DNA from: a virus
Reading direction: 5' to 3' (one strand)
Virus record (IMG/VR): IMGVR_UViG_3300031521_000027
Span: 1 to 64,000 of that record
DNA: 64,000 bases
Shown here piece after piece: positions 2 to 63,332 of this stretch (position 1 is its first letter; each line of letters begins with the position of its first letter). The notes below the pieces were generated by a model. The model saw nothing but the letters and a program-made list of their open reading frames with translations. It was not told the origin of the DNA and ran no database searches. The position numbers and the translations under genes were made by a program.

Positions 2-562
2 AACCCCGGGGACCGCAAGCTGGTGGTGGCCGACTGCACCGAGGCGGTGAAGGCCATCGAGCCGATCCTGCTGAAGTACGTCGTGCCGTTCGACTTCGAG
101 GCCGACAAGCACTTCGAGGCGGAGATCCTGATCAACCACCCGCGCACTGGGGAGCCCGAGCAGATCATCCTCAACGGCTACATGGACATCCTCGTGCGCG
201 ACGACAAGGGCCGCTGGATCGTCTGGGACGTCAAGCACACCAAGGACGAGTCCTACTGGCGCAAGACCGTCGGCCAGCTCGGTTTCTACGATCTCGCCGT
301 TGAGCTGATGTTCGGGCAGGCCACGGCCATGACCGGGCTCTTCCAGCCGCTGTGCAAGGAGCGGGTCAAGGCCTACAAGCCGACCGTCGATTCCAGAAAC
401 CAGCTCCTCCAGAGGATCCTCGGCATGGCCAACGACATCCTGCTGGACATCAAGACCCCGGTCGAGGGAACTGGTCCCTGCGGTTTTTGTCCTACACGTC
501 ATGCGTGTACCAAGTTCGAGCCCATCATTGATAAGCAGGGCAAGAAGAGGATCTCAATGTGA
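2..562 (+). CDS. Cas4/RecB-like PD-(D/E)XK exonuclease (5' truncated)
   Basis: GYMDILVRD...WDVKH catalytic motif, QLGFY motif, C-terminal CxxCxxxxxC; frame is open from the window start. Confidence 0.8.
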   Translation, partial: NPGDRKLVVADCTEAVKAIEPILLKYVVPFDFEADKHFEAEILINHPRTGEPEQIILNGYMDILVRDDKGRWIVWDVKHTKDESYWRKTVGQLGFYDLAVELMFGQATAMTGLFQPLCKERVKAYKPTVDSRNQLLQRILGMANDILLDIKTPVEGTGPCGFCPTRHACTKFEPIIDKQGKKRISM

Positions 563-1122
563 CTGAGACATGGCTTCCCATCTTGGGGTATGGGGGCTAC
601 TACGAGGTGTCCGATCTCGGCAGAGTTCGGGCTCTGGCTCGCGTTGTCACCTACTCCACTGGAGGGAAGCGAAGTTATCCGGGAAGGATTCTTGTTCCCT
701 TCATGGGCCCCAGAGGTTACTGGTTGGTGGCGGTGTCCTACAGGAGCAAGACGTCACTTCCTGCGGTTCACTCCTTGGTGGCCAAGGCCTTCCATGGACC
801 TCGTCCTGAGGGGCTGGAGTGCAGGCACCTAGACGGGGACCGAGACAACAACCGGGTGTCCAATCTTCAGTGGGGAACTCACTCGGAGAACCGACTGGAC
901 CAGATTGCCCATGGAACTGATACCAAGCGGAATCGAACACACTGCCCTCGGGGCCATCCCTTGCAGGAACCCAATCTCTGCTTACGGCAGTGGGAGAACG
1001 GTCGCCGAGCCTGTAGGTCCTGTGCAGCAGCCAGAGAGTTCGTGTCCAGACATCCCTTAGCTGATTTCAAGCTGGAGGGTGACAGGTACTACAACCAGTT
1101 CGTTCTGAGCCTCAGCGCCTGA
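559..1122 (+). CDS. NUMOD4-HNH homing endonuclease
   Basis: N-terminal WLPILGYGGYYEVSDLGRVR (NUMOD4); HLDGDRDNNRVSNL HNH motif; lower GC than neighbours. Confidence 0.9.
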   Translation: MTETWLPILGYGGYYEVSDLGRVRALARVVTYSTGGKRSYPGRILVPFMGPRGYWLVAVSYRSKTSLPAVHSLVAKAFHGPRPEGLECRHLDGDRDNNRVSNLQWGTHSENRLDQIAHGTDTKRNRTHCPRGHPLQEPNLCLRQWENGRRACRSCAAAREFVSRHPLADFKLEGDRYYNQFVLSLSA

Positions 1123-1125
1123 GAG

Positions 1126-1139
1126 GCGTATCAGTGAGG
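1126..1139 (+). promoter_or_regulatory. Phage middle-promoter motif (GCGTATC AGTGAGG)
   Basis: Copy of the recurring GCGTAYC-A(G/A)T motif, upstream of ATG 1156. Confidence 0.6.
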
Positions 1140-1155
1140 GGAGAGGAGGCCAACC

Positions 1156-1404
1156 ATGGCCGCTATTGAAGATCAGATCCGTGAGGTCCGTGGGGCCATC
1201 GCGCAGGTGCAGAACAAGAAGGCACGCTCCGCCGTCGAGCTGGAGAACGCCAAGTCCCGGCTCGCGGATGCGCGCAAGGTGCTGAAGGACGAGTTCGGCG
1301 TCGAGACCAACGAGGAAGCCAAGTCCAAGCTCACCGAGCTGCGGGCCGAACTGGACTCCGCCGTCGCCGAGATCGAGGCCTCACTGGTAGAGGCCGGGGC
1401 GTGA
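1156..1404 (+). CDS. Small coiled-coil hypothetical protein
   Basis: GGAGG RBS, heptad-rich sequence, typical codon usage. Confidence 0.75.
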   Translation: MAAIEDQIREVRGAIAQVQNKKARSAVELENAKSRLADARKVLKDEFGVETNEEAKSKLTELRAELDSAVAEIEASLVEAGA

Positions 1405-1622
1405 TCACAGCTCTCGTCACCGTCGGTGCTGTCCTGCTGGTGGGAGGGCTGGTGATCTACGCTGCCCTTTCCAACACCGCTCCTGAGCCTTCACCGCTGG
1501 TGATCTGCACGGTGTGCGTCATGGGGTTCTCTGCGTGGGAGAAGGCTGTTGAGCATCTCCAGCTCGCCCACATCTCGAAGGTCCCTGACGATCTCTCTGA
1601 CATCGAGCTTGACTCTAGGTAA
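1401..1622 (+). CDS. Small membrane protein with C2H2-like zinc motif
   Basis: N-terminal hydrophobic helix; CxxC...HxxxxH; GTGA overlap with previous gene. Confidence 0.6.
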   Translation: MITALVTVGAVLLVGGLVIYAALSNTAPEPSPLVICTVCVMGFSAWEKAVEHLQLAHISKVPDDLSDIELDSR

Positions 1623-1637
1623 GGACAGTCTTATACT
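1609..1637 (+). promoter_or_regulatory. Host SigA-type promoter
   Basis: TTGACT-17 bp-TATACT upstream of ORF 1677. Confidence 0.8.
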
Positions 1638-1676
1638 AGAGACGTCAACCCAGATTCACGAAACAAGGCGGTCAGC

Positions 1677-2312
1677 ATGAGCAAGGGCAAGTACGACAAG
1701 CTGCGCAGGGGCCTGATGGCCAATCCCATCGCGGTCACCCGGCGTCTCCCCGGCCAGCCCCCGGCACCCATCACCGAGCCCGTGCAGGACGCTCTCCCGC
1801 TGAGCGGGATGCAGCCCGGCGAACTGGTGATGATCAAGGGCACGACCCCCAAGCTCGTGGACGCTCCCTACACCGGGGTCGAGGTCAGGGTGGCTCAGTT
1901 CCTCGCGGAGGAAGCCGACATCGTCGTCACGGCAGTGCCGATGGACACCATGCCGGAGAAGCTGCTGAGCAACACCGACCGAGGCCTCAAGGGTCTGGCC
2001 AAGGGCCTCATGCTGAAGGAGGAGGGCCAGACCAAGGCACTCACCGGAGCAGCGGCATGGGCCGAGCGCGCCAACGCGTGGATCGTCAAGCTCCCGGCAG
2101 GCACGCTCTTCTCCGCCAACGAGCTGGTGAGGGCTGTCGACCTGCCCCACCCGGACACCGACACGCCGAACCGCAACAACGCCGTCGGTGCGCTGTTCTC
2201 CTCCGCCTCTCGCAGGGGCCTGATGCGCAAGACCGGGAACTACAAGCCGAGCAACAACTCGGCCAACCGGGGTGCCGTCGTGGCCATCTGGATGCGGACG
2301 GACGCGAAGTGA
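1677..2312 (+). CDS. Hypothetical protein (possible C-terminal winged helix)
   Basis: Long ORF with genome-typical codon bias behind a promoter and RBS. Confidence 0.7.
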   Translation: MSKGKYDKLRRGLMANPIAVTRRLPGQPPAPITEPVQDALPLSGMQPGELVMIKGTTPKLVDAPYTGVEVRVAQFLAEEADIVVTAVPMDTMPEKLLSNTDRGLKGLAKGLMLKEEGQTKALTGAAAWAERANAWIVKLPAGTLFSANELVRAVDLPHPDTDTPNRNNAVGALFSSASRRGLMRKTGNYKPSNNSANRGAVVAIWMRTDAK

Positions 2313-2587
2313 GCGGGGATCCGAACGTCCGCTGGCTGGTCGTCACCAATGCTCCAGCCGCCACCGTCGAGCGGTACCTCTACAGCACCGCCCACCGGGT
2401 GGTCAGCTACGACAACCCGAACTACAACCACCCGACCCACCTCGTGGTCGTGATGGCCCGCAGCAACGTCGAGTACATCGCCAACTACCAGTCCGACCGG
2501 ATGCTCTCCGGCCTGATGGGGTCCAAGGTGTGTGAGACCTACCTTGAGGCTCTGGATGCCATCCTCGACGTCACCCGCGATTCCTGA
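2309..2587 (+). CDS. Hypothetical protein
   Basis: GTGA-coupled start at 2309 within track ORF 2057-2587. Confidence 0.65.
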   Translation: MSGDPNVRWLVVTNAPAATVERYLYSTAHRVVSYDNPNYNHPTHLVVVMARSNVEYIANYQSDRMLSGLMGSKVCETYLEALDAILDVTRDS

Positions 2588-2600
2588 AAGGAGGCTCCCG

Positions 2601-3041
2601 ATGCGAGCTGCAATCTTCGACATGGACGGCACGCTCGCTGACGTGCGGAGCATCCGGCACTTCGTGAACGGACCCGTCAGGAACTTCGACGCCTTCCACC
2701 GCGCCAGCGTGAACGTGCCCGCCAACCAGTGGGTGGTGAAGCGCGCGCAGGCTCTGCACGCCTCCGGGGTGGCCATCCTCGTGGTGACCGCCCGGGTGCA
2801 TCGTTTCCGGAATCACACCGCGTGGTGGCTGGCCATGCACGATGTGCCGAGCGACGGCCTGTGGATGCGCAACGATGATGACCAGCGTCCGGACTTCTTC
2901 GTGAAGGCCGACATCCTGAAGCGCATCCTCGATCTGGGCTACACCCCGATCCGTGCGTTTGACGACAACCCCGCCGTGATCAAGCTCTGGCAGAGTCACG
3001 GCATCCCCACCACCATCGTCCCGGGCTGGGAGGCCTCATGA
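2601..3041 (+). CDS. HAD-family phosphatase (T4 PNKP phosphatase-domain-like)
   Basis: IFDMDGTLAD motif I, VVTAR motif II, MR..D.RPD..VK, FDDNP motif IV; GGAGG RBS. Confidence 0.85.
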   Translation: MRAAIFDMDGTLADVRSIRHFVNGPVRNFDAFHRASVNVPANQWVVKRAQALHASGVAILVVTARVHRFRNHTAWWLAMHDVPSDGLWMRNDDDQRPDFFVKADILKRILDLGYTPIRAFDDNPAVIKLWQSHGIPTTIVPGWEAS

Positions 3042-3241
3042 ACAAGGTTCTGAAACAGGCAGTCGAAGACGCCTCGTACGAGCGCAGCGGCAGCGGTCAG
3101 GGAGTACCCACCAAGAAGGAGCTGGCCAAGCTCCTGAAGAAGGTCGAGAAGCTCAACAAGGGGGGCAACGAGACCCTCTACGACTACATCGACGCCACCC
3201 ACGACCTGATCAACGCCCTGCTGGTGAAGCTCTATGTCTGA
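3038..3241 (+). CDS. Hypothetical protein
   Basis: ATGA-coupled short ORF. Confidence 0.6.
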   Translation: MNKVLKQAVEDASYERSGSGQGVPTKKELAKLLKKVEKLNKGGNETLYDYIDATHDLINALLVKLYV

Positions 3242-4460
3242 CCAGATGAGCCTGCTCGAACTCAGCGAGCTGGAGGACGACCTTGTCCCCGAGATCCTGC
3301 CGTCGTCGGCGTCGCTGTCGATCAAGGCCGACGTCGCCAAGCTGAAGGCGCTGTTCTCCCGGGCCAACGGGGTCACACCCGTCCGGGAGATCGTGCCGGG
3401 CACGGCCTTCGCGCTGTTCGAGGCTGTTCCCACCACCTCCGAGGTGGCCGCGCATCTCCGGATCACGGCCACCGACGGGGAGCAGACGGTCTCCGTGGTG
3501 GAGGACGGTGTCGACGTCAAGGTGCCCGGCGCTGTCCTGCTGCCGCCCAAGCGGATGCTGGACATCCTGAAGCTGGCTCCGACCACCCGGGTCGACATCA
3601 CTGTGGTGGGCTCCACCGCTCTGGTGCGCTCGGGCCGCGCCCGCTGGACCGTGCAGGTACCTGTGGGGGAAATGAACCTGCTGGGGCTCGACGAGGTTTC
3701 TGGAATCAAGCTGGCTCCTGTGCCGGTGGTTCCCTTCCTGTGCGCCCTGATGGCTGCCCGCAAGGCTGCCTCCACCTCAGACGCCCGGGTGTCCCTGATG
3801 CAGGTCAAGGTCAAGGACTCCGCCATCGTCGCCTGCGACGGGGGACGGCTGCACAAGGCCACCGTGGCGGGGCTCGACCCGGCCATGGACACCACCATCC
3901 CGGTGCGGACGGTCGACGAGCTGATCAAGGCCCTCGACGGGGCCGACGAGTTGCTCATGGGCTTCGACGAGCGCCATCTGGTGTTCCGGGTGGGGGCCGA
4001 CTCCATCGTGGCCCAGAGGATGCTCCTGCCGTTCCCTGACGTGCAGTCCCTGCTGCTCGGGCCGCAGATCACCAACACCCTCGGGCTGCTGGTGGATCGC
4101 AACGAGCTGTACGAGGCGATCAAGCGGGTGCGGATCAACGCCGACCCTGACATCGCCGTGGTGTCCCTCAGCATCGTCAGGGGGGCCCGTAGCGCCACGG
4201 ACTGGGCTCTGGAGGTCAAGAGTAGGGACCGGGCAGGCAACACGGCGCAGGAGGTCGTGGAGTGCCAGTGGAAGGGCAAGCCGAAGGAGGTCTTCTACAA
4301 CCATCACTACCTCACCGATCTGCTGGAGGTGTGCATCGCCGACACGCTGATGCTGAGGATGGGCGGGGACACCAAGGCCAACCGCACGCCGCTGCTGATC
4401 GACGACACGGACGCAGGGGTGATGGGCATCATCCAGCAGACGACGGACCACTGGTCATAG
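3234..4460 (+). CDS. dnaN: DNA polymerase III beta subunit (sliding clamp)
   Basis: ITATDGE, VACDGGRL, FPDV and YNHHYLTDLL motifs; length fits a three-domain beta clamp. Confidence 0.85.
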   Translation: MSDQMSLLELSELEDDLVPEILPSSASLSIKADVAKLKALFSRANGVTPVREIVPGTAFALFEAVPTTSEVAAHLRITATDGEQTVSVVEDGVDVKVPGAVLLPPKRMLDILKLAPTTRVDITVVGSTALVRSGRARWTVQVPVGEMNLLGLDEVSGIKLAPVPVVPFLCALMAARKAASTSDARVSLMQVKVKDSAIVACDGGRLHKATVAGLDPAMDTTIPVRTVDELIKALDGADELLMGFDERHLVFRVGADSIVAQRMLLPFPDVQSLLLGPQITNTLGLLVDRNELYEAIKRVRINADPDIAVVSLSIVRGARSATDWALEVKSRDRAGNTAQEVVECQWKGKPKEVFYNHHYLTDLLEVCIADTLMLRMGGDTKANRTPLLIDDTDAGVMGIIQQTTDHWS

Positions 4461-4488
4461 GCTGCGCGCAGTCGCGTTGCGCCGACAG

Positions 4489-4523
4489 GAAGCCCGGAGG
4501 TGTTAGTGGCCCTCCGGGCTTTC
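4489..4523 (+). terminator. Intrinsic terminator hairpin
   Basis: AAGCCCGGAGG / CCTCCGGGCTT stem downstream of dnaN. Confidence 0.75.
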
Positions 4524-4556
4524 GCTTGCCCACCGGTAGGTTGATTCCAGAAACAG

Positions 4557-4585
4557 TTGACATGCAGAGCCCAAGTGACTATAGT
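4557..4585 (+). promoter_or_regulatory. Host SigA-type promoter
   Basis: TTGACA-17 bp-TATAGT upstream of ORF 4619. Confidence 0.85.
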
Positions 4586-4618
4586 TAGGGACAGGTCAAC
4601 AACACAGAAGGAATCACA

Positions 4619-5020
4619 ATGGCTGCACTGCCCGACGGTCTCACGCAGGCCGACCTCGACCGCTACGCCCAGCTCGACGCTGGCATCGCCGCGCTCGCCG
4701 AAGAGCACAAGATCCTCAACGCCAAGATCAAGAAGGCTCACCTCGACGCCGGTCTTTCCGGAAAGAAGACGCTGGTCTACCCCAGCGACAAGTACGGCGC
4801 GATCATCGTCAAGCTCAACGAGCAGCGCAGGCTCGACATGGAGGCACTGGCCGAGAAGTACGTCGAGGAGCAGTTCCCGCAGTACTTCATCCACTCCCTC
4901 GACACCAAGGCCATCCCCGCCGATGAGCTGGACGTCTTCCGTACCAAGGTCGTGCAGACCCTGTCCATCGACCGGGAGAACGCCGAGCCCGCCGTCTCGC
5001 CGAAGCGCGTGCAGGTCTGA
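4619..5020 (+). CDS. Hypothetical protein
   Basis: AAGGA RBS, strong codon bias, follows SigA promoter. Confidence 0.75.
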   Translation: MAALPDGLTQADLDRYAQLDAGIAALAEEHKILNAKIKKAHLDAGLSGKKTLVYPSDKYGAIIVKLNEQRRLDMEALAEKYVEEQFPQYFIHSLDTKAIPADELDVFRTKVVQTLSIDRENAEPAVSPKRVQV

Positions 5021-5280
5021 TGGTGGCAACCATGACGGTTCGCAGCGAGGTTCGGGGAACCGTGCCTCAGCTGCGGATCTTCGCCCGCATGACGGGCACC
5101 CAGACCCAGCGCACCCTGCGCGTGGATGGCCAGCGCTCGCTGACCCAGAACATCACCACGGCAGCGCTGATGGTGGGCAGGGTGGAAGCTACGAAGCGCG
5201 GTCTCGATCCTGCCTCTGTGCGGGTCGTTCAGCAGTTGGAGGATGGCTATGGGCACGTCGCCCTTCTGGAGGGGCTGTGA
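5020..5280 (+). CDS. Hypothetical protein
   Basis: TGATG-coupled ORF. Confidence 0.6.
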   Translation: MVATMTVRSEVRGTVPQLRIFARMTGTQTQRTLRVDGQRSLTQNITTAALMVGRVEATKRGLDPASVRVVQQLEDGYGHVALLEGL

Positions 5281-5447
5281 GGTCGGCAGAGAGGCTCTCG
5301 AAGACCTCCGTGTGCAAGGACCACACTCTGGTGGCGGTGCTGTCCATGATGGTGGACTTCGGGACCGCATTCACGGTCAGGACCACCGTCCCTGCGACCT
5401 GCCAGCACTGCGCCCTCCCCGCCTACACGACGGTGTCCCGGCTGTGA
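5277..5447 (+). CDS. Small putative zinc-binding protein
   Basis: GTGA-coupled; CxxH...CxxC. Confidence 0.55.
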   Translation: MRSAERLSKTSVCKDHTLVAVLSMMVDFGTAFTVRTTVPATCQHCALPAYTTVSRL

Positions 5448-5722
5448 AGTACATGTGGTCAGGGACGCCGGAGGGAGAAGCGCTGGAGGCCAGCATCTCG
5501 AAGGCTGTGCACGACATGCTGGCCAAGCGGGACGGTCTGCTGGAGGAGATGTGCATGGCGATGATCTTCGAGGGCAGGCGTGGGCTCAAGGTCGTCGAGT
5601 CGCTGGAGACCATGACCGTCGAACTGTCCGATGAGGTGCCCTTGGGAGAGATCCACTGGCACCGGGACTACACCCCCGCGTTGGACTTCAGCGTCGAAGA
5701 TTTTCTGCGCTCGAAGTCGTAA
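5444..5722 (+). CDS. Hypothetical protein
   Basis: GTGA-coupled start at 5444. Confidence 0.6.
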   Translation: MKYMWSGTPEGEALEASISKAVHDMLAKRDGLLEEMCMAMIFEGRRGLKVVESLETMTVELSDEVPLGEIHWHRDYTPALDFSVEDFLRSKS

Positions 5723-5823
5723 ACCACTATGTAACCTTTAACTAACTACCCCCGTAGGGGGAGTAAGGCTCATCGAGTCCTTGGTCTCTGATCGAGGGCT
5801 CGCTGCGTTTTCGGGTCCGATCC

Positions 5824-5837
5824 GCGTACCAGTAGTT
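5824..5837 (+). promoter_or_regulatory. Phage middle-promoter motif, leaderless
   Basis: GCGTACC AGTAGTT followed directly by GTG 5838. Confidence 0.65.
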
Positions 5838-6794
5838 GTGAAGCTGTTCCCCTACCCCGAGTGTGGCGACTCTTCTGACGTCCTCGGGTGGATGAAGGGC
5901 AACGCCAACCGGTACCTCCACACCTTCCGCCGCACGAGCACTCCGTTCCCGGATGTCGACATGCTCAGCGACTGGGTCTTCACGGTCAGTGTGAAGCTCC
6001 ACCGACCGTTAGGCGCTACCGAACGGTCCTACCTGCTCACAGCGGACATGGCTGTCTCGGCGGCGGAGTACGCGCTGGAGCACTACGACCCCGAGCACGA
6101 GTGCTTCGAGAAGGCCCACCGTGGGGGCTGCCGGTCCAAGCGGGTCTCGCCGCTGTTGGGCATGGTCAAGGATCTGGCCTACATGAGCGCGGCGCAGGTG
6201 GCGGCGAAGCTCGGCATCAGCCGTCAGCACGCGACCCGGTTGCGCAAGCGTGTGGTCGCCGACGCCCCCCAAGACGTTTCCGAAAAAGAGATTGATGCAC
6301 TCATTGGGCACCCCGGTTGGTCTGGCGACGTTCTGAGGCGTACCAGTAGTCATGGACACATTGGATTCGCTGGTCGTCAGGGCCCGCCAGCGCCGTCGGC
6401 AGATCGATGTGGCGCAGGGTGGGGTCCGGGCGGTGCTGTTGCGGGGCAAGGAGCTGACCACCGAGGTGTCAGACCTGTCCGCACTGGTGGAGGAGCTGGA
6501 CCGCGTGACGGTGCTGCTGAACTCGCTGGGGGAGGAGCGGCAGCTTGCCGCCCAGTCCAGCATCGAGGAGCTGGTCACCCGGGGCCTGCGGATGATCTTC
6601 GACGACACCCTGAGCTTCCACATCGTGCAGGCCGTGAAGGGCAAGACCGCAGTGGTCGAGTTCGTGGTCCGCACGACGCTGGGCAACGACGTCATCGAGA
6701 CCCCGGTGATGGACGCCCGGGGCGGTGGCCTTGCCGCCGTGATCGGCTTCCTGCTGCGGTTCGTCGTCATGCTGATGGGTCGCGATCCCCGTGA
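5838..6794 (+). CDS. PriCT-1/HTH protein resembling the C-terminal half of ColE2/pAL5000-type Rep; portion beyond about 6310 doubtful
   Basis: LHRPLGATE...AVSAAEY, RGG.RSKR, and HTH MSAAQVAAKLGISRQHATRLR; 3' part overlaps gene 6352 out of frame. Confidence 0.5.
   Translation: MKLFPYPECGDSSDVLGWMKGNANRYLHTFRRTSTPFPDVDMLSDWVFTVSVKLHRPLGATERSYLLTADMAVSAAEYALEHYDPEHECFEKAHRGGCRSKRVSPLLGMVKDLAYMSAAQVAAKLGISRQHATRLRKRVVADAPQDVSEKEIDALIGHPGWSGDVLRRTSSHGHIGFAGRQGPPAPSADRCGAGWGPGGAVAGQGADHRGVRPVRTGGGAGPRDGAAELAGGGAAACRPVQHRGAGHPGPADDLRRHPELPHRAGREGQDRSGRVRGPHDAGQRRHRDPGDGRPGRWPCRRDRLPAAVRRHADGSRSP
6338..6351 (+). promoter_or_regulatory. Phage middle-promoter motif, leaderless
   Basis: GCGTACC AGTAGTC followed directly by ATG 6352. 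Confidence 0.7.
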
Positions 6795-7002
6795 CTCCAC
6801 GATCATGGTGCTGGACGAGATCTTCGCCCACGTGAGCGCGGAGTACCTCGAACCGACAGGGCAGTTCCTGCGCGAGGTCGTCGACCGCACCGGGGTCCAG
6901 ATCATCATGGTCACCCACCAGCCAGAGTTCGCCCAGTACGCCGACCGGGTCTACAACTTCTCCACCACCAACGGCAAGACCGTTGTGAAGGACGTTTCCT
7001 GA
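6352..7002 (+). CDS. SbcC/Rad50-like ABC ATPase, C-terminal half
   Basis: Coiled coil, signature-like RGGG, Walker B IMVLDE, D-loop-like IFAHVS, H-loop MVTHQ; no Walker A. Confidence 0.8.
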   Translation: MDTLDSLVVRARQRRRQIDVAQGGVRAVLLRGKELTTEVSDLSALVEELDRVTVLLNSLGEERQLAAQSSIEELVTRGLRMIFDDTLSFHIVQAVKGKTAVVEFVVRTTLGNDVIETPVMDARGGGLAAVIGFLLRFVVMLMGRDPRDSTIMVLDEIFAHVSAEYLEPTGQFLREVVDRTGVQIIMVTHQPEFAQYADRVYNFSTTNGKTVVKDVS

Positions 7003-7003
7003 A

Positions 7004-7240
7004 ATGAATGTTGATCCCGGTATGCCCCGCAAGGTCCTGCGCTGGGCCCACGAGCACGGCGGGGTGCACACCGACTGCCTCATCTCCGGCAAGCCCTGCG
7101 AGAGCTGCGAGAGGGTCATCATCTCCGCGTTCGACCACTTCTACGGCCACGCCACCGACATCGGTGAGGTACTGGCCTTGGTCGTCGCCGACTACCGGCA
7201 GGACATCCTTGCCGACGAACAGGAAGCCCCTCATGCCTGA
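7004..7240 (+). CDS. Hypothetical protein (Cys/His motifs)
   Basis: Coupled short ORF with HxxC...CxxC. Confidence 0.55.
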   Translation: MNVDPGMPRKVLRWAHEHGGVHTDCLISGKPCESCERVIISAFDHFYGHATDIGEVLALVVADYRQDILADEQEAPHA

Positions 7241-7391
7241 GAACGTCAAGGTCCATGTGTCCCTGCTGGCAGCCGCCACGCTGGTTGCGGTGATGTGCCT
7301 GTACGGCTTCTGGTTCTACTCGCACTGCTTCTACATCCCGTTTCAGGACGCTCCTGCCGGGTGCTTCGGCTCGTTCGTGACGAGCAAGTGA
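7233..7391 (+). CDS. Small membrane protein
   Basis: AGGA RBS, hydrophobic helix. Confidence 0.55.
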   Translation: MPENVKVHVSLLAAATLVAVMCLYGFWFYSHCFYIPFQDAPAGCFGSFVTSK

Positions 7392-8518
7392 TGAGCGACG
7401 CCGACACAGCCCCACTGGCCCTGAAGTACCGGCCACAGGTGTTCCCCGATCTGGTGGGTCAGCGGCTCAACGCCACCGTGCTCCAGCGGATGGTCGACAC
7501 CGACCGGGTCCCACACGCCCTGCTCTTCTCCGGCCCGTCCGGGGTGGGCAAGACCACAGCCGCCCGGGTGCTCGCCTCCCAGATGGGGGCCTCCGATGTG
7601 ATCGAGGTGGACGCTGCCAGCAATGGGGGCGTGGACCAGATCCGCAAGCTGCTGGACGTGGCCCGGTTCTCCACAGGAGGGGCCCACAGGGTCATGGTGC
7701 TGGACGAGGCACACAGCATCACCCGGCAGGGCTTCGAGGCCCTCCTGAAGACGCTGGAGGAGCCGCCGAGCAATACCGTGTTCGTGCTGGTCACCACCGA
7801 GCCCCACAAGATCCCCGGCACCGTGCTGAGCAGGCTGGTGGAGTTCCAGTTCCGCGCCGTCCCCGACGCCGACGTGCTGGACCGGGTGATGGTGATCGCC
7901 CAGAAGGAGTCGATCCCTGCCGAGTTCGACCTGATCAACCACATCGTCCGGCTGGCAGGTGGCAACGTCCGCACCGCGCTGATGGCACTGGACCAGACGT
8001 GGCGCGCACAGGTGACCACCATGGCTGACTACCAGCGCCTGACGGGGGAGCACGACACGGCACCAGCCCTGCTGGAGGCCTGCGCCTCCGGCGACCACTC
8101 CCGGGTCTTCGAGGTGCTGGACACCCAGCTGTCCTCGGTGGGCTCGCCCGGCCAGATCACCGCTGAGCTGGTCTCCTGCCTGAGGGACCTGCTGGTGCTG
8201 CGCGCCGGAGGCACCCTGAAGGTGTCGGGGGAGGACTACGAGGTCCGCCATGGGCTGGCACTGAAGCTGGAGCCGGAGCGGTTGCTTGCTGCGATCCGGG
8301 TGTTGTGGGAGGTCAAGACCAAGATCCGCTCCGACGACCCCAGAGGGGTGCTGGAGATGGCGCTGGTGCTGGTCACCGAGGCGTTCACCAAGGGCAAGGA
8401 CATCATCCCCAAGGTCATGGCGATGGCCGTCCCTGCTCCATCCACTGAGGAGGTTCAGACCCCCCGGAGGATGAGCCTTTCCGACCTCCAGCGGTTTGCT
8501 CCGGCTGCATCTGTATGA
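7391..8518 (+). CDS. dnaX: DNA polymerase III gamma/tau-like clamp loader ATPase
   Basis: LALKYRPQ.F.DLVGQ, GPSGVGKTT, EVDAASNGGVDQIR, LDEAH, LLKTLEEPP, TVLSR. Confidence 0.92.
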   Translation: MSDADTAPLALKYRPQVFPDLVGQRLNATVLQRMVDTDRVPHALLFSGPSGVGKTTAARVLASQMGASDVIEVDAASNGGVDQIRKLLDVARFSTGGAHRVMVLDEAHSITRQGFEALLKTLEEPPSNTVFVLVTTEPHKIPGTVLSRLVEFQFRAVPDADVLDRVMVIAQKESIPAEFDLINHIVRLAGGNVRTALMALDQTWRAQVTTMADYQRLTGEHDTAPALLEACASGDHSRVFEVLDTQLSSVGSPGQITAELVSCLRDLLVLRAGGTLKVSGEDYEVRHGLALKLEPERLLAAIRVLWEVKTKIRSDDPRGVLEMALVLVTEAFTKGKDIIPKVMAMAVPAPSTEEVQTPRRMSLSDLQRFAPAASV

Positions 8519-8521
8519 GTT

Positions 8522-8552
8522 TTGCACCGATTCAGTTCTCCCGTTGTAGGCT
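8522..8552 (+). promoter_or_regulatory. Possible SigA-type promoter
   Basis: TTGCAC-19 bp-TAGGCT upstream of the glycosyltransferase cassette; spacing is suboptimal. Confidence 0.35.
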
Positions 8553-8591
8553 GCTCGCGAGGCCGGGGGGACTCTTACCTATTTTGGAGGA

Positions 8592-9200
8592 ATGGCCTTG
8601 ACATCCTTGCTCGCCCCCACAGTCCCAGCCACCACCGGCCTCCCCGAACTTTGGATCCTGTCCATCGTGAAGTCCGGCAAGTTCGTGGACGTACCCTCCG
8701 CGTATTCAGCCATGCGGGTCCCCGCTGAGCGCGCCGTGGTGGTCTCGGAGTATCCGCTGCACTTCCATCGCCGGACGGCAGAGAATCCGGTCATCCTCGG
8801 GGCCTACCGGGACTCCATGCTGTGGAACGCAGGCCTTGACCACATCGCCGCCCAGCAGCCCGCAGACGCCATCTGGGACGTCCTCCTGCTCGATCCGACA
8901 GCACCATTGCCCCTGCGCCACGCGGACAGCCTCAGGCACCACATGCGTACGCTGGACGTGTGGATGGCCGAGCCAGACCTCTTCGATGTGATCGGACCTC
9001 GCGCTCACCAGACCTTCTTCGGAAACGAGCCTGATCAGGCTCACCCCAGCGCCGTCGTGGTGTCCGGAGAGATGAAGGTCCGCTTCGACCCACGTGTCTA
9101 CGACGGAGCAGACGCATGGGCGGACTACTGCCGCCGTACCCGTTACGTCGGAGGATCCGTGCTCGTCTCCACCACTGCCCTGAGGGAGCACGTTTCATGA
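8592..9200 (+). CDS. Hypothetical protein (possibly a degenerate GT-A glycosyltransferase)
   Basis: GGAGG RBS; WNAGLD...VLLLD pattern; first gene of the coupled cassette. Confidence 0.55.
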   Translation: MALTSLLAPTVPATTGLPELWILSIVKSGKFVDVPSAYSAMRVPAERAVVVSEYPLHFHRRTAENPVILGAYRDSMLWNAGLDHIAAQQPADAIWDVLLLDPTAPLPLRHADSLRHHMRTLDVWMAEPDLFDVIGPRAHQTFFGNEPDQAHPSAVVVSGEMKVRFDPRVYDGADAWADYCRRTRYVGGSVLVSTTALREHVS

Positions 9201-33551: not shown

Positions 33552-33587
33552 GCAGTTTCCAAAAAGAGAGACCCAAGGAGGTCCAAG

Positions 33588-53298: not shown

Positions 53299-53493
53299 AT
53301 GACCGATCCGCAGTACGACCTGTCCCCCGACGATGCCGTCATCCAGATGCACGCCAACCTGACGGCCATGAAGGCGGACCCGAACCGGAAGCAGCTGACC
53401 GGCATGACTCCCGACGACGCCTTCGACCTCGGGTACGGCGCGTGCCTGCTCGACTACTCCGCCCTCACCGGGCCCAAGCCTGAAGAGAACTGA
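53299..53493 (+). CDS. Small hypothetical protein
   Basis: AAGGAG RBS. Confidence 0.6.
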   Translation: MTDPQYDLSPDDAVIQMHANLTAMKADPNRKQLTGMTPDDAFDLGYGACLLDYSALTGPKPEEN

Positions 53494-55781: not shown

Positions 55782-56331
55782 GCTGCTCCGGATCGCCAAC
55801 GAGAGAGTCTCGATCACCAAGGCCTGCAACATGATCGGGATGAACGTCAGCGACTACGCCGCCGCGTCGATGAAGGTCTACTGCCCCTTCGGCGAGATCT
55901 TCCATCAGGACGGTGGAATGTCGAAATCCATGCGGATCTACGCCGAGTCCAACAGCGCCTTCTGCTTCGCTGGGTGCGGCTACTACGACCCGGTCAAGCT
56001 CATCTCCACCAGTAGGGACATCTCCGAGGAAGATGCAGCGGAGGCCCTGCTGGAGGAGACTGGGTACGTAGCACCCAACTATCAGGATCAGTGGGACGCG
56101 CTGATGTCCGAGAAGCCAGTGGTCGACACGGCAGACTTGGCCGAAGCCCTCAAGGTTGCGTGCGCCAGAATGGTCCCGAACTGGGAGGAACGCCAGTTCG
56201 ATGAAGCGGTCTCGCACAAGCTCACCCAATGCCTCGCTCTCCTCCGCAAGGTCCACACCGATGATGACGCCACGAACTGGCTGAGCATCACCAAGAAGGT
56301 CATGAAGGCAACGATGGAGGCACGGGCATGA
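55768..56331 (+). CDS. DnaG-type CHC2 zinc-finger protein (no TOPRIM domain)
   Basis: CPF...H.D...SMRIY....AFCFAGC...D. Confidence 0.75.
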   Translation: MERAELLRIANERVSITKACNMIGMNVSDYAAASMKVYCPFGEIFHQDGGMSKSMRIYAESNSAFCFAGCGYYDPVKLISTSRDISEEDAAEALLEETGYVAPNYQDQWDALMSEKPVVDTADLAEALKVACARMVPNWEERQFDEAVSHKLTQCLALLRKVHTDDDATNWLSITKKVMKATMEARA

Positions 56332-56570
56332 GCACGGACGAGAAGCTGGGGAACCTCCCCCAGCTGGAGGGCTGGGTCAACCTCACCGAGGCCGCAGAGA
56401 TCTTGGGCATCTCCCGACAGCACGCGTACCGACGTGCACGTTTGGCCAATGAGGGCAAAATGGGTGGCTGGAAGACGGTGTGTCGCATTGGCACCAAACC
56501 GAGTTATGTGGTAGCTCTTTCCGAGCTTCAGGAGGAGCTGCTTGTGACACGCCCGGATCGCAGACGTTAG
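56328..56570 (+). CDS. Small HTH DNA-binding protein
   Basis: LTEAAEILGISRQHAYR. Confidence 0.75.
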   Translation: MSTDEKLGNLPQLEGWVNLTEAAEILGISRQHAYRRARLANEGKMGGWKTVCRIGTKPSYVVALSELQEELLVTRPDRRR

Positions 56571-56739: not shown

Positions 56740-57465
56740 TTGGCGTTTTACGAGAAACAAGCGGTCAACTTATCGGTCACCCCATGGAGGATTTCTGTGC
56801 CCAGTCTTACCGTTTCCCCCCGCACCATCACGCAGGCCGGAAGGCCCTCATCGTCGAGGTATCCGGACTTCGTCCCAGCCAACTACACCGAGCTGTTCGA
56901 CCACTACTACCCTTACGTCCGGGGCATCGTCTTCAAGTCCGGCATCGACTCCCAGAGCTGTGCGGACGTGACCATGTCCATCCTTGAGAAGTTCTTCGCC
57001 CACGACGTGCTGGCCGACTTCAACCCCGAGTTCACCTCCACCCATGGTGGGGTCACCCGCAAGGCCATGTTCCGGACCTTCCTGTCCGGCTTCGTCAAGA
57101 TCTACGTCCGGCACCACCGGGACCGCCAGATCATCACCAAGGCTCGCGAGGCCATCTCGCTCGACGCACCAGCCGGTGACGACAACACGTGGATGGACTA
57201 CTACGGGGAGACCCACGTCGACACCTACGATCAGCTGATGATCGAGGATGCCGTCCTCACCGTGCAGGACCACCTTGCCACCCTCTCCGACCCCCGGGGC
57301 CGCTGCGAGATGCTGGACCTGTTCAACATGACCTTGGAGCACTCGGTCACCTACGGCAGCCCCAACGTTGAAATCCTGTCCCAGTACTTCGAGGTCTCCG
57401 AGACCACGATCCGGAACCGGCTGAAGGCCCTGCGCGCCGAGATCCATGAGGTCTTCGAGTCATGA
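56740..57465 (+). CDS. RNA polymerase sigma factor, ECF-like (alternative start GTG 56797)
   Basis: Region 2-like YTELFDHYYPYV...ADV...FRTFL...VRHHR; region 4 HTH LSQYFEVSETTIRNRL. Confidence 0.7.
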   Translation: MAFYEKQAVNLSVTPWRISVPSLTVSPRTITQAGRPSSSRYPDFVPANYTELFDHYYPYVRGIVFKSGIDSQSCADVTMSILEKFFAHDVLADFNPEFTSTHGGVTRKAMFRTFLSGFVKIYVRHHRDRQIITKAREAISLDAPAGDDNTWMDYYGETHVDTYDQLMIEDAVLTVQDHLATLSDPRGRCEMLDLFNMTLEHSVTYGSPNVEILSQYFEVSETTIRNRLKALRAEIHEVFES

Positions 57466-58522: not shown

Positions 58523-58989
58523 TGAGACCTACACAGGAAATCCGGCGCTTCTTCGCCAAGACCCTTGATGAAGACCGGGGGTACATCACTCCCTGCGTGA
58601 TCTGGACCGGCAGGAAGGTGAATGGGTACGGGGTGTTCGATCTCCAGCGCGATGACAACTCCGGCCCGCGTGCTGTGAAGGCCCACCGGTACTCCTACGG
58701 ACTGCTTCACGGAGAGCAGCACATCCGCAGCGCCGTGGTGGGTCGCGAGGACGAGATTGACCACCTCTGCTTGCAGCGGGACTGCGTCAGGGAAGGTCAT
58801 CTTGAACTCGTGACCCTGAAGGTCAACCGCCAGCGGATGCACGACGTCCACCGGACAGAGATGTGCAAGAGAGGTCTCCACCTTCGCGCTGAGTTCGAGC
58901 GGATCAAGTCGACCGGCGCTCCGTACTGCTTGGGGTGTCAGAGGATCAACGATGCTAAGCGTCGTCCTCGTAAGAAGAGGGAGGTCTGA
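58522..58989 (+). CDS. HNH endonuclease
   Basis: CVIWTG...NGYG.F, KAHR.SY, IDHLC..R.CV...HLE.VT...N. Confidence 0.85.
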   Translation: MRPTQEIRRFFAKTLDEDRGYITPCVIWTGRKVNGYGVFDLQRDDNSGPRAVKAHRYSYGLLHGEQHIRSAVVGREDEIDHLCLQRDCVREGHLELVTLKVNRQRMHDVHRTEMCKRGLHLRAEFERIKSTGAPYCLGCQRINDAKRRPRKKREV

Positions 58990-59986: not shown

Positions 59987-59987
59987 G

Positions 59988-60001
59988 GCGTACCAGTAAG
60001 T
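59988..60001 (+). promoter_or_regulatory. Phage middle-promoter motif (GCGTACC AGTAAGT)
   Basis: Intergenic, upstream of the polymerase operon; identical to the 53267 copy. Confidence 0.75.
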
Positions 60002-60031
60002 GGAGCACCCCGCAGATCAAGGAGAACTGAC

Positions 60032-60223: not shown

Positions 60224-62829
60224 CCACTCGCAACTACGGAGCCCTCCGGGAGGCCTACGGGTCCAAGGGTGCGGTCTCCTTCATCGACCGGATCACAGCC
60301 AGCGGTAAGCCCTTCGACTTCGACATCGAGGCGGGCTACACCGGGGACGACAAGAAGGGTGTCTCCCTCCAGCAGTACCACCCCGACTACCTCGTGGTCG
60401 GCATCTCCTTCACGGTCTCCACCGAGTGGGCCCGCTACATCCCCTTCGCCCACGACAGCGGCGGCAACATCGACGACATCGTCCCGGTGGCCCGCGCCTT
60501 GTGGCGGCTGCTCAGCTCCGGGCAGGGGATCGCCCACAACGCAGCCTACGAACTCAAGGGCATGTCCCGGTGGTTTCGTGAAACGTTGTGGAACGACGAC
60601 GAGCTGGGCGAAGAGATCCGACGCACCAAGGGCATGTTCCCGATCCTCGCTGACACGATGCTGCTGGTCTGGCTCGCCGCCTGCTACGACCCGCTCCGCG
60701 TCGGCAAGGACCTGAAGTCGGTGGCCAAGGCCGCGTTCGGCATGGAGATGACCCACTTCGACGACCTCTTCCCCACCACTGACACCGACCTCGGCCCGGC
60801 CATGAAGCGGGGTGGCAAGCCGTACATCCGGTTCAACACCCGCAACTCCTACAGCCCCGTGATCGTGGGCTACGCCTGTGAGGACTCCGTCGCCTCCTTC
60901 ATGGTCTGGGAGAAGCACTACGAGGCCCTCAAGGACACGTTCATCTTCAAGACCGAGATGGCCCTGCTCCCGGGACTGGTGGAGATGGAGGCCGGGGTCA
61001 TCGATCCGGAGACCGGGGTCGCCTCCGGCAACATGTTCTTCCACTGGCCCAACGTCCGCAAGAAGTCCGAGGAGGCCCTGCGCTTCGCCACCCTCATGGG
61101 TGAGGAGATTCAGGACCAGCTGGGCAAGCGGCTGAACAAGACCATCAACATCAACCTGAACTCGGTCCCGCAGCTGGCCAAGGTCCTGTTCGACGAGAAG
61201 CCCGACGGCCTCGGCCTGCCAGTGAAGGTGCGCTCGGAGAAGACCGGGGCACCCAGCACCAGCGACGACGCCCTGAAGGTGATTGCCAAGTCCGACCCGA
61301 TCATCAAGATGATCCTTGAGTACCGGCAGGTGGTGAAGCTCAACGGGTCCTACCTGACCAAGTTCATCAACGAGCTGGGCTACTCCGGCACCGGCTACGT
61401 CTTCCCCAACCACAACCAGTTCGGTGCCCTCACCGGGCGGCTCTCGGTGGATCAGGTCAGCTACCAGCAGTGGCCCAAGCCGTACCACTTCCAGCTGCTG
61501 TCCGGGCTCACCTTCGACCTCAACTTCCGGGACCTGTTCATCTCCCCGGACCACTTCCGGATCGTCGGCTTCGACTACGCCAACGTGGAGATGCGGATCG
61601 CCGGGGCCCTGTCCGGTGAGCGCAAGATCATCGACGCCTTCAACAACGGGCTCGACCTCCACAAGTCCACCGCCTCGGCCACCTTCAAGGTCAGCCTCGA
61701 AGATGTCACCAAGAAGCAGCGGCAGTCGGCCAAGACCCTGAACTTCGCCACCCTCTTCGGGTCCGGTGCAGGGAACATCGCCGAGATGCTGACCAGCCCC
61801 TCCGACCCGGTGACCAAGGAGGACGCCGAGCAGATGCTGGAGGACTACTTCGCTGGGTACCCAGCGCTGGCCGATTGGATCGCCAGCCAGAAGGCGCACG
61901 GTCGTGAGTCCAAGGAGGTCCGCACCCACTTCGGTCGGCTCTACACCATCTGGGAGCACTACCAGCCCAAGGAGTGGATCAAGGCCAAGGGTGACCGGAT
62001 GTCGGTCAACGCACCGATTCAGGGCACCGCCGCCGACATCCTCAAGATCGCCATGGTCCGTGCCAAGAAGGCCATCAAGGAGGCCGGGCTGGAGGACCTC
62101 GTCCGGATGACCCTGACCGTCCACGACGCGCTGGAGTTCCTCGTCCACGAGTCCGTCTCCACCCAGCAGGTCATCGACCTGATCGAGCCCTGCGTCAACT
62201 TCCCGGTGCCCGGCTTCCCGCTGGAGATCCGGGCGGACTGGCACGAGGGCTACCAGTGGGGTGCCCAGACCGAGGTCCGGCTCGACGAGAACAAGCAGAT
62301 CAAGAGCTTCGACATCGAGGTGGAGCTGCCGTGGCTGAAGGAGTCCCACTACTGGGAGGGCTCCACGCTGCACGAGGTGCTGGACCAGTACTACGCGTGG
62401 GAGGCAGGCTTCTTCGGCTTCTCCGCCCCGTACTACGCCACCCGCAACCCAGACTTCTCCCTGCCCGAACCCGCAGATGCCTCCCAGCAGCCCGACGTTG
62501 CCGCTGTGGAGCCTGAGGAGGAGGACCCGGGGTGGTTCCACAGCGCGGAGCACAACGCCGCACTGCTGCCCCCCAAGACCGCCACGGTGACCATCTCCGA
62601 GATGCCCGACGAGGAGCAGTGGCTGAAGTTCACCACCTACCTCGACTTCCGGCAGGGTGTGGACACGGTCAAGGTCGAGACCCCGGAGGGTGTCGTCACG
62701 CTCGACGGCACGTTCCGGATCTCCCCGGACGATCAGCCAGCCATCAGCCTCATCCTCGGAGGGGCCGGTCTGGTGATCGCTGACGACGTGGCCGACGCCG
62801 ACGACGTGATGGCAGGGATGCTGGTATGA
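60220..62829 (+). CDS. polA: Family A DNA polymerase with 3'-5' exonuclease and extra C-terminal domain
   Basis: Exo FDIE, HNAAYE, YACED; TGRLS; motif A DYANVEMR; motif B RQSAKTLNFATLFG; NAPIQGTAAD; motif C VHDAL. Confidence 0.92.
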   Translation: MTTRNYGALREAYGSKGAVSFIDRITASGKPFDFDIEAGYTGDDKKGVSLQQYHPDYLVVGISFTVSTEWARYIPFAHDSGGNIDDIVPVARALWRLLSSGQGIAHNAAYELKGMSRWFRETLWNDDELGEEIRRTKGMFPILADTMLLVWLAACYDPLRVGKDLKSVAKAAFGMEMTHFDDLFPTTDTDLGPAMKRGGKPYIRFNTRNSYSPVIVGYACEDSVASFMVWEKHYEALKDTFIFKTEMALLPGLVEMEAGVIDPETGVASGNMFFHWPNVRKKSEEALRFATLMGEEIQDQLGKRLNKTININLNSVPQLAKVLFDEKPDGLGLPVKVRSEKTGAPSTSDDALKVIAKSDPIIKMILEYRQVVKLNGSYLTKFINELGYSGTGYVFPNHNQFGALTGRLSVDQVSYQQWPKPYHFQLLSGLTFDLNFRDLFISPDHFRIVGFDYANVEMRIAGALSGERKIIDAFNNGLDLHKSTASATFKVSLEDVTKKQRQSAKTLNFATLFGSGAGNIAEMLTSPSDPVTKEDAEQMLEDYFAGYPALADWIASQKAHGRESKEVRTHFGRLYTIWEHYQPKEWIKAKGDRMSVNAPIQGTAADILKIAMVRAKKAIKEAGLEDLVRMTLTVHDALEFLVHESVSTQQVIDLIEPCVNFPVPGFPLEIRADWHEGYQWGAQTEVRLDENKQIKSFDIEVELPWLKESHYWEGSTLHEVLDQYYAWEAGFFGFSAPYYATRNPDFSLPEPADASQQPDVAAVEPEEEDPGWFHSAEHNAALLPPKTATVTISEMPDEEQWLKFTTYLDFRQGVDTVKVETPEGVVTLDGTFRISPDDQPAISLILGGAGLVIADDVADADDVMAGMLV

Positions 62830-63332
62830 GCAACGAGTCCGACTTCGAGGCCCAGATCATGGCGTGGGTCACTGAGACGCTGGAGCTTCGCCACGGTGAG
62901 GCAGGGGACCCCAAGGGCAGGCTGCGCGGTGCTGAGCAGGAGAGCATCGCGGAGATGACCGACCTGCTGCTGCGGGTCAGGGCACGCGCCGACCGGGTCG
63001 ACGAGCTGCTGAGCAAGGTCACCCTCGCTCGGGGCCGGGCACGTAGGGCCAAGGAGGAGGCAGCCTTCACCGCTGACCGAGCCCTGATGCAGGCCACCCA
63101 GATCCGGGGGGCGAAGAGGACCGAGTTCTCCTCCGCCGCCGAGCGGGCAGCCGACGCCAAGCTGGATTCGTTTGAGGAAAGAAGGGTGGCTTATCTTAGG
63201 GACAGATTGGTATCGGTTACCAATGATGCCCACGAAGTGATTTCACAGGTTCACTGGCAGCTGGACGCCATCCGCAAGGACCTGCGCGCCTCGCTCCACG
63301 CCCTCCAGTTCGAGTCCTCGCTGGAACGGTGA
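62826..63332 (+). CDS. Coiled-coil hypothetical protein (possibly a UvsY-like mediator)
   Basis: All-helical 168 aa between pol and SSB; function inferred from context only. Confidence 0.5.
   Translation: MSNESDFEAQIMAWVTETLELRHGEAGDPKGRLRGAEQESIAEMTDLLLRVRARADRVDELLSKVTLARGRARRAKEEAAFTADRALMQATQIRGAKRTEFSSAAERAADAKLDSFEERRVAYLRDRLVSVTNDAHEVISQVHWQLDAIRKDLRASLHALQFESSLER

Follow-up and report, generated by a model that had tools for sequence, protein, structure and literature searches.

What is the role of a short palindrome that recurs throughout a viral genome, for the most part inside genes, and which protein reads it? The question is raised by a 64,000-nucleotide stretch of DNA from IMG/VR record IMGVR_UViG_3300031521_000027 (the window, as we call the whole stretch analysed), through which the sequence TTTC-NN-GAAA is dispersed. 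It corresponds to bases 17942-81941, read on the reverse strand, of a viral contig of 81.9 kb in IMG/VR that CheckV rates as 66% complete, and its source is an uncultured ~125-kb phage of Microbacterium-type bacteria. We compared this record (G000) with the relatives G002-G011, of which G003 and G007 are complete, and with Microbacterium phage Magritte (133 kb), its nearest cultured relative (PolA 48% identical, gene order in agreement). Our best explanation of the whole, which we hold with somewhat less than even confidence, is that the palindrome is an operator read by a small winged-helix protein of the phage, HTH-B, and that it serves both in the control of early promoters and in coating or bridging of the genome.

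The palindrome, TTTCNNGAAA, is present in 19 perfect copies in the window, compared to 0.18 expected from dinucleotide shuffles (maximum 2), and no other palindrome of the form 4-N(0-6)-4 comes close to it in enrichment (-log10 P ~53). An earlier note, made from the sequence alone, had listed these 19 starts and estimated that well under one perfect copy should occur per 64 kb; all of the copies are present, and the shuffles agree with its estimate. Its 19 one-mismatch copies are also real, and four further ones lie at 9193, 23155, 24831 and 50567, so that perfect and one-mismatch copies together number 42 in the window against 5.9 expected. Throughout the window there are 63 TTTC and 61 GAAA tetramers, which pair 19 times across a 2-nt spacer (N2), five times at N1 and once at N5, with no pairs at N0, N3, N4 or N6-N12; the enrichment, which the earlier note had suggested comparing over N0-N6, is thus found at N2 only. 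The whole 82-kb record carries 25 perfect copies, 19 of them coding, and about 20 variant copies, with a perfect-copy density of ~1 per 3.3 kb; the palindrome recurs about every 2-3 kb.

Coding constraints do not account for these numbers. Using a codon-preserving shuffle that keeps every protein sequence and the codon usage of each gene, as had also been proposed, we obtained 0.28 coding copies for the window, where 17 are found, and 0.46 for the record, where 19 are found. The 17 coding copies of the window are spread over the three reading frames (6/7/4 in frames 0/1/2), the other two being at a gene junction or intergenic, and they bring in the otherwise rare codons TTT (3.4% of the Phe codons) and AAA (1.9% of the Lys codons); between 21% and 30% of the genome's TTT and AAA codons fall within sites. 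The description of the copies as mostly intragenic, in differing frames and forcing rare codons was therefore accurate. Three of them (47580, 47694 and 49200) cannot be counted as independent, since the protein module that contains them is repeated; they lie in a 1570-residue protein (45812-50524) with a galactose-binding-like domain and repeated modules G(A/V)VSGKVL, with one palindrome per module. The sites of the window are as follows, perfect copies first.

4755-4764, perfect site TTTCCGGAAA, in a coding sequence
6995-7004, perfect site at a gene junction, between the stop of 6352-7002 and the start of the next gene
11015-11024, perfect site in a coding sequence
13281-13290, perfect site in a terminase-like coding sequence
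14699-14708, perfect site in the portal coding sequence, kept in G002
19334-19343, perfect site in the coding sequence of a 2096-residue protein
27584-27593, perfect site, intergenic
31256-31265, perfect site in a coding sequence, kept in G004/G002
31635-31644, perfect site in a coding sequence; half-sites kept and spacer changed in G004
34500-34509, perfect site in a coding sequence, kept in G004
38644-38653, perfect site in a tape-measure-like coding sequence; spacer changed in G004
42137-42146, perfect site in a coding sequence
47580-47589, perfect site in a repeated module of the 1570-residue protein
47694-47703, perfect site in a repeated module of the same protein
49200-49209, perfect site in a repeated module of the same protein
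51040-51049, perfect site in the SNF2 helicase coding sequence, the sole intragenic site also kept in the distant G003
52599-52608, perfect site in the coding sequence of the sigma factor sigma-1, kept in G004
54174-54183, perfect site in the DnaB coding sequence, kept in G004, lost in G003
60574-60583, perfect site GTTTCGTGAAAC, in the PolA coding sequence, kept in G004, lost in G003
390-399, variant site ATTCCAGAAA, of an enriched class
1654-1663, variant site ATTCACGAAA, between the -10 box of promoter 1609 and the ATG at 1677
2580-2589, variant site ATTCCTGAAA
2804-2813, variant site TTTCCGGAAT
3697-3706, variant site TTTCTGGAAT
4544-4553, variant site ATTCCAGAAA, 3 nt upstream of the -35 box TTGACA of promoter 4557
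6277-6286, variant site TTTCCGAAAA
9193-9202, variant site TTTCATGAAT
9275-9284, variant site ATTCTGGAAA
16929-16938, variant site TTTCCAGAAT
21233-21242, variant site TTTTCAGAAA (GTTTTCAGAAAC)
24431-24440, variant site TTTTCCGAAA, kept in G002
33556-33565, variant site TTTCCAAAAA, between a stop codon and the ribosome-binding site of gene 33588; G003 has a site at the same place
39234-39243, variant site TTTTCGGAAA
58320-58329, variant site TTTTCGGAAA (GTTTTCGGAAAC), kept in G004
Starts of the other one-mismatch copies: 23155, 24831, 26034, 36334, 45359, 50567, 56748

An alignment of 60 sites from G000 and G003 showed that the full site is a symmetric 14-mer, about YGTTTC-NN-GAAACR, with Y-G before the core and C-R after it. 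No information was detected past the ±3 bp flanks in this alignment, indicating that there is no promoter element at a fixed distance from the sites. The tolerated variants are mirror images of each other: T>A at position 1 and A>T at position 10 are found in five copies each, and C>T at position 4 and G>A at position 7 in six and four copies, respectively, while each of these classes is expected at ≤0.06 copies. In copies scored as N1, an N2 site carries a C>T or G>A substitution, as in GTTTTCGGAAAC. Variants of the two half-sites assort independently, with 11 singles and no doubles in G000 (0.6 expected) and 14 singles and two compensated doubles in G007 (3.0 expected). Since one-sided variants are common and there is no compensatory excess, the half-sites behave as independent protein half-sites and not as the arms of a hairpin. 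From the symmetry and the variants, we infer that the palindrome is a protein operator with two half-sites that are read independently; the suggestion of the earlier note that a symmetric, dimer-type protein site is spread phage-wide is backed by these symmetric flanks and mirror variants and by selection at the DNA level.

This selection was evident from close relatives. Between G000 and G004/G002 (89% PolA identity), 111 of the 112 half-site positions are identical, whereas the flanks are 88.5% and the two spacer positions 86% identical (Fisher p = 6e-5), which is the conservation in related phages that a binding site should show according to the earlier note. In the complete genome G003 (59% PolA identity), most intragenic sites have been replaced by ordinary GC-rich codons, e.g. 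TTTCAGGAAA by TTCCAGAACA; nonetheless, G003 holds 11 perfect copies as well as 14 of GTTT-N4-AAAC, and the enrichment persists. Sites are also spaced more evenly than random in G000, G003, G004 and G007, with a coefficient of variation of 0.65-0.73 compared to about 0.95 (P of 0.005 to 0.06 for each genome). Thus individual sites turn over in distant relatives while their density and even spacing stay, and selection acts on the DNA itself to maintain the sites.

The position of a subset of sites ties them to transcription initiation. The record contains eight sigma-A-type promoters, TTGACA-N17-TAAGAT/TATACT, mostly followed by AGAGACAT, and in five of these eight early promoters 3-4 nt separate the end of a site from the -35 box downstream of it (within the window, site 4544; beyond it, 75893, 77465, 80030 and 80993). 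The promoter concerned in the window is:

4557-4585, + strand, sigma-A-type promoter TTGACA-N17-TATAGT, with a site abutting its -35 box

Similarly, four of six promoters in G004 have an adjoining site, where the chance is ~0.006 per promoter. The promoter-adjacent operator spans about -51 to -38. The promoter contexts previously described for 1654, 4544 and 56748 (the last at the start of the sigma gene), and the reading of GTTTCGTGAAAC at 60573, are correct. As AGAGACAT follows the -10 box of most of these promoters, some transcripts would be leaderless; at 75907-75945 and 77479-77517 of the record, the order is TTGACA-N17-TAAGAT-AGAGAC-ATG, and transcripts would start at or beside the ATG. 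Leaderless mRNAs are typical of actinobacteria.

The majority of sites are inside coding DNA. Others lie between a stop codon and a ribosome-binding site (33556, 66434/66462, 70724 and 79503, and many in relatives), and the intergenic region downstream of recA keeps a site in G000, G004, G007, G003, G006 and Magritte. We considered whether the palindrome could itself be a promoter of a phage sigma factor and rejected this, as there is no conserved downstream element and the placement of the sites relative to two other promoter-like repeats, GGCGTACCAGTAG and GGCCGATCTTC, is not fixed.

Which protein, then, reads the operator? Pfam scans of about 50 proteins returned few DNA binders, and the best candidate found, by co-occurrence and fold, is one that the earlier note had named from its helix-turn-helix (HTH 56328). 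It has a paralogue, with which it shares the peptide LGISRQHA; gene calling had passed over both.

56328-56570, + strand, HTH-B, 80-residue winged-helix protein (HTH_17-like), candidate reader
6120-6345, + strand, HTH-A, paralogous helix-turn-helix segment LGISRQHATR within open reading frame 5781-6794, possible second reader

The AlphaFold model of HTH-B (pLDDT 78.8) predicts a strand-helix-turn-helix-wing-helix order (beta-alpha-alpha-wing-alpha), with a strand at residues 16-18, helices at 19-26 and 30-42, a wing strand at 60-63 and a last helix at 64-74. Its nearest solved structures in Foldseek are RacA-DNA, RdfS, BldC, Pukovnik Xis and P2 Cox (TM 0.5-0.7). HTH-B has no PHROG match and no PDB sequence match, no cultured phage encoding it was found, and its family is small, with 392 representatives among 1.84 billion.

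The distribution of this family follows the motif in several genomes. HTH-B is encoded by G004/G002, G003, G006, G007 and G009; G005, G010 and G011 lack it, and in these three the motif occurs at chance level. The HTH-B of G004 and G002 is 89% identical, with 19 TTTC-N2-GAAA sites per 60 kb and 13 per 57 kb, respectively; that of G003 is 67% identical, with 11 sites per 128 kb. In the complete genome G007 (DnaB 52% identical), HTH-B is 41% identical and there are 11 sites per 126 kb, with flanks CA…TG; G007 is farther away than Magritte by DnaB, yet its 11 copies are of the N2 type only. The relative in G008 has the recognition helix TKQGVHA in place of (S/T)RQH(A/S)Y, and G008 has 0 sites, with TGTCTA-N5-TAGACA in their stead.

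The link extends beyond phages. Nine independent metagenome loci with HTH-B relatives (66 kb in total) hold five perfect N2 sites, compared to 0.23 expected. In a 2.4-Mb Microbacterium metagenome-assembled genome, an HTH-B homologue lies in a chromosomal island of 61% GC (L093, on a 788-kb contig) that also encodes Rep_1-like, HATPase_c_3 (MORC-like) ATPase, serine resolvase, TY-Chap2, AAA_13 and Type ISP restriction enzyme genes. Four of the 12 sites of this genome are ≤9 kb from the homologue, intergenic and flanked by YG…CR; outside the island there are about 8, ~1 per 300 kb, the phage being ~90x denser. The island looks like a mobile defence island regulated via the same palindrome. At another locus (L095, G013:C3:312500-315500), which looks like the edge of an integrated element, a TTGACA-N15-TAGTTT promoter beside a tRNA-like 3' fragment has its -10 box overlapped by a pair of perfect sites with 19 bp between them. 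HTH-B relatives are carried on Microbacterium and Microbacteriaceae contigs, indicating the same host group for the phage. HTH-B belongs to an uncharacterised winged-helix family that travels with the motif into unrelated chromosomal islands.

RacA, the top structural neighbour of HTH-B, suggests how such a protein might read the operator. Its DNA-binding domain, a winged helix of the MerR-like type, is a monomer that becomes a wing dimer only when bound to ram, a dispersed palindrome of 14 bp; it makes its base contacts near the ends of the palindrome and then coats DNA (PMC4914108). The site described here shares with RacA/ram of Bacillus subtilis its 14-bp length, specific outer bases and free centre. 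Unlike it, ram is GC-rich and RacA is a cellular sporulation protein with a long C-terminal coiled coil for pole anchoring, whereas the 80-residue HTH-B ends with one short helix; the fold match between the two is also weak (E about 0.05, 16% identity). By analogy, two copies of HTH-B would bind each 14-mer, pairing up only on DNA, with the recognition helices on the outer GTTTC blocks and the wings meeting over the free central NN. A protein on the promoter-adjacent operator would touch RNA polymerase. Because the early promoters are near consensus and HTH-B is encoded in the replication (middle) block, shut-off or damping of early transcription would be the likeliest effect: HTH-B, once expressed from the middle block, would damp early transcription. 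The ~40 other copies would constitute a phage-specific landing lattice, from which HTH-B could coat, bridge or mark the whole phage DNA. The protein may instead activate transcription, or its role may be purely organisational; coating for silencing, organisation or protection, as the earlier note inferred, may also be part of it. A broader proposal, in which an even lattice of high-affinity sites in a lytic phage lets a minimal RacA-like 'wing-dimer' nucleate coating or bridging and so mark or organise phage as against host DNA in a chromatin- or centromere-like manner, gates the early promoters and forms a portable module shared with Microbacteriaceae defence or mobile islands, seems to us unlikely as a whole.

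Several observations weigh against HTH-B as the reader. Its match to Pfam HTH_17 (23.6 bits, E 6e-5) is below the curated 27-bit cut-off, and the E-values of its top Foldseek matches (5i44, 8dgl, 6ama, 4j2n and 4lhf) are weak. G006 and G009 (54-55% GC) have HTH-B proteins of 61% and 41% identity with four and three sites, a weak enrichment, and this was all that G006 yielded when used as a prediction test of the link between HTH-B and the motif. Because branches of the DnaB tree are poorly resolved, there are few independent contrasts behind the co-occurrence, and with a record that is 66% complete, other candidate binders may lie outside it. The strongest objection comes from Magritte, which carries a related lattice, WTTC-N1-GAAW in 18 copies and WTTC-N2-GAAW in 12 (other spacings ≤2); some of the copies are ATTTCAGAAAT located 3-5 nt upstream of -35 boxes. 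No HTH-B family gene was found in Magritte, by profile search included, so sites of this class can be read by some other protein, which may do so in the phage studied here as well. The Magritte lattice makes the assignment provisional: the proposal of HTH 56328 as binder stood as to its being the best candidate, not as a settled assignment, and the chances that HTH-B reads the palindrome appear to us about evenly balanced.

The most serious rival follows from this objection. The sites would be operators of a different phage protein common to Magritte, possibly encoded outside the incomplete record, with HTH-B tracking them by shared ancestry and the function still being promoter control together with an array; we regard this as a doubtful though substantial alternative. 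The 30 Magritte sites and the site downstream of recA that Magritte shares speak for it, as do several small proteins that are present in lattice-bearing genomes and absent from G008. The best of these alternatives is an acidic 64-residue protein encoded just after sigma-1 (53299-53493), which, with its orthologue Magritte gp48, is present in every lattice-bearing genome and was undetected in G008 and G005 in a profile search from the Magritte side. It gives the best presence/absence fit to the broad lattice; we rejected it as the binder because it is strongly acidic and hence unlikely to bind DNA; it may act as a partner to RNA polymerase or to the sigma factor. No other DNA-binding domain of fitting distribution was found in the Pfam scans, and the Microbacterium island has HTH-B and the sites in common with the phage, its other scanned genes being quite different in kind.

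Alternatively, the host could read the element, either through the alpha subunits of its RNA polymerase, for which the sites would be UP-like tracts, or through a host regulator; the sites would then boost early promoters and attract polymerase. The E. coli UP-element core has the consensus TTTT-N3-AAA, and the position of the promoter-linked sites at about -50 to -40 fits this core; the promoter-adjacent position is also common to Magritte, which is without HTH-B. An UP element, however, acts only beside a promoter, and ~40 copies are conserved with no promoter at a fixed distance: most sites lack a downstream promoter element, yet their half-sites are selected. The inner C/G and outer G/C are specific, N2 is strict and the symmetry extends to 14 bp. 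Moreover, with ~8 sites outside its island, the Microbacterium genome shows no host regulon, and related phages differ in spacing (Magritte has both N1 and N2), a difference for which a host polymerase common to them would not account. We consider this reading improbable.

A still smaller probability attaches to the idea that the sites are targets of a DNA-modifying or -cutting enzyme (a phage methyltransferase, another modification enzyme or a nuclease) and act as a self-mark. Short interrupted palindromes are typical of dimeric restriction-modification enzymes, and such a mark would be in keeping with sites that are evenly spread over the genome and ~90 times denser than in a genome of host type. 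However, the fixed place beside -35 boxes indicates transcription, no candidate enzyme tracks the motif, and we know of no reason why a modification site should be enriched rather than merely tolerated.

The kinship that the earlier note had drawn, with parS and Noc-binding sites (NBS) on one side and with stoperators and phiC31 CIRs on the other, did not hold. The half-site GTTTC is that of parS, and in being dispersed and intragenic the sites recall stoperators and NBS, features that would suit partition or occlusion by a ParB/Noc-like system or a temperate immunity repressor with stoperators. TTTC-N4-GAAA has 0 copies, though, and the sites are symmetric, unlike stoperators (PMC4351075). 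The ParB/Noc-like genes for which the note had advised a search were not found, the ParB_N domain (PF02195) being absent from G000, G004 and the two complete lattice-bearing relatives G003 and G007 while control genomes matched; tyrosine and serine integrases (PF00589, PF00239) are likewise absent from these four genomes. With neither ParB_N nor an integrase, membership of the ParB/Noc, excisionase and temperate-repressor classes fails, and we give this explanation very little credence. The slightest chance of all goes to a hairpin, formed in RNA or in single-stranded DNA as a signal for, e.g., processing, pausing or priming: several copies do occur after a stop codon and ahead of the following ribosome-binding site, and with all genes on one strand every copy is transcribed, but stem-breaking one-sided variants are common with compensated doubles at chance, the stem has merely 4-6 A/U-rich pairs, and copies upstream of promoters are not in those promoters' transcripts.

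Two other roles were rejected. HTH-B as an excisionase or recombination directionality factor would call for a cognate integrase, which the complete relatives lack. Loading of an AlpA/Q-type antiterminator was dismissed since the known element lies between -35 and -10 and is bound by a monomer with an RNA-exit-channel ring in a larger protein (PMC9371919), whereas the palindrome is symmetric and upstream of -35 and HTH-B is far smaller.

With HTH-B as the favoured reader, the operator can be set beside known systems. The closest published case is that of the Cluster O mycobacteriophages, which contain a 17-bp dyad repeat, TGTTCGGNNNCCGAACA, in 34 copies, about a third of them coding, with a free centre and a predicted dimeric binder, in an apparently lytic phage that encodes its own clamp; binder and function of the repeat are unknown (Cresawn et al. 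2015, PMC4351075). Common to both are the tens of dyad-symmetric copies genome-wide, partly coding and with a free centre, in a lytic actinophage with its own clamp. They differ in sequence (YGTTTCNNGAAACR compared to TGTTCGGNNNCCGAACA) and length and in that most copies here are intragenic, and the present case goes further in half-site selection, even spacing, the fixed position at early -35 boxes and a named candidate binder. D29 Gp36 is a small MerR-like repressor of phage genes in a lytic mycobacteriophage (PMC12266134). Like Gp36, BldC (PMC5859096) and P2 Cox, HTH-B would be a winged helix in the range of 60-90 residues with no effector domain that regulates transcription from repeated DNA sites; unlike here, where inverted repeats occur genome-wide, those proteins bind direct repeats head to tail at one or a few loci. 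One regulator with many dispersed sites, some of them intragenic, is also the arrangement of Cluster A stoperators, phiC31 CIRs, KorB/OB and ParB/parS. Cluster A stoperators are, in contrast, asymmetric, oriented with transcription and found in temperate phages, whereas the sites here are symmetric to ±3 bp; KorB and ParB require a ParB_N domain that is absent here, and the N4 spacing of parS is unused.

Dispersed palindromes of lytic actinobacteriophages have thus been known since at least 2015 (Cluster O), without a binder or function. The present case adds quantitative evidence, with half-sites conserved above the synonymous background, rare codons tolerated and positions turning over at constant density, and it names a concrete candidate reader for formerly unexplained repeats. 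Should the lattice prove to organise or mark phage DNA, viruses would have a simple equivalent of RacA/ram, ParB/parS and Noc/NBS. A literature search for the motif string gave no match, and a search for Microbacterium-phage motifs returned nothing useful; new here are the motif, figures for selection on the sites and for their evenness, their geometry at promoters, a candidate family of readers and its presence in unrelated islands.

Regarding the possible second reader, open reading frame 5781-6794, which contains HTH-A, continues for 440 nt in another frame over the well-supported gene 6352-7002; this overlap could be a frameshift, a sequencing error or real, and the variant site at 6277, with an A5 run, lies just upstream of it. 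Eight of the ten ATTC/GAAT half-site variants fall within the first 10 kb (390-9284), a stretch with two perfect sites only, and this cluster may represent a lower-affinity class or one specific to HTH-A.

The window as a whole has 64% GC, with GC at third codon positions (GC3) near 0.88 and all convincing genes on the + strand; these include a family A polymerase, DnaB and SNF2 helicases, a beta clamp, clamp-loader subunits, RecA and a Mu-type portal. A nucleotide search of phage records found no match. Two sigma-like proteins are encoded:

52495-53241, + strand, sigma factor (sigma-1), phrog_351
56740-57465, + strand, second sigma-like helix-turn-helix protein

Two repeats could be promoter classes of such factors. 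The repeat (T)GAGGCGTACCAGTAG, at 5823, 6337, 53266, 55205 and 59987 in the window and 69665 and 72878 in the record, usually ends 0-30 nt before a start codon and may be the promoter class of a phage sigma factor; its placement relative to the palindrome is not fixed. The repeat GGCCGATCTTC, upstream of structural genes at 11135, 17555, 24338, 27187, 30534 and 34967 in the window and 68410 and 71117 in the record, resembles the sigma-28/WhiG -10 element GCCGATAA and may be a late promoter class for sigma-1. Low-GC3 gaps at 563-1155, 32564-32906 and 58523-58951 have HNH/NUMOD-like translations and, on that reading of the translations, are probably homing endonucleases between phage genes. Finally, relatives have extra palindromes of their own, TTGCAATTGCAA in G003 and G006 (12-15 copies), GTTAC-N4-GTAAC in G007 (eight copies) and TGTCTA-N5-TAGACA in G008 (six copies), and genomes of this phage group seem as a rule to contain more than one operator family.

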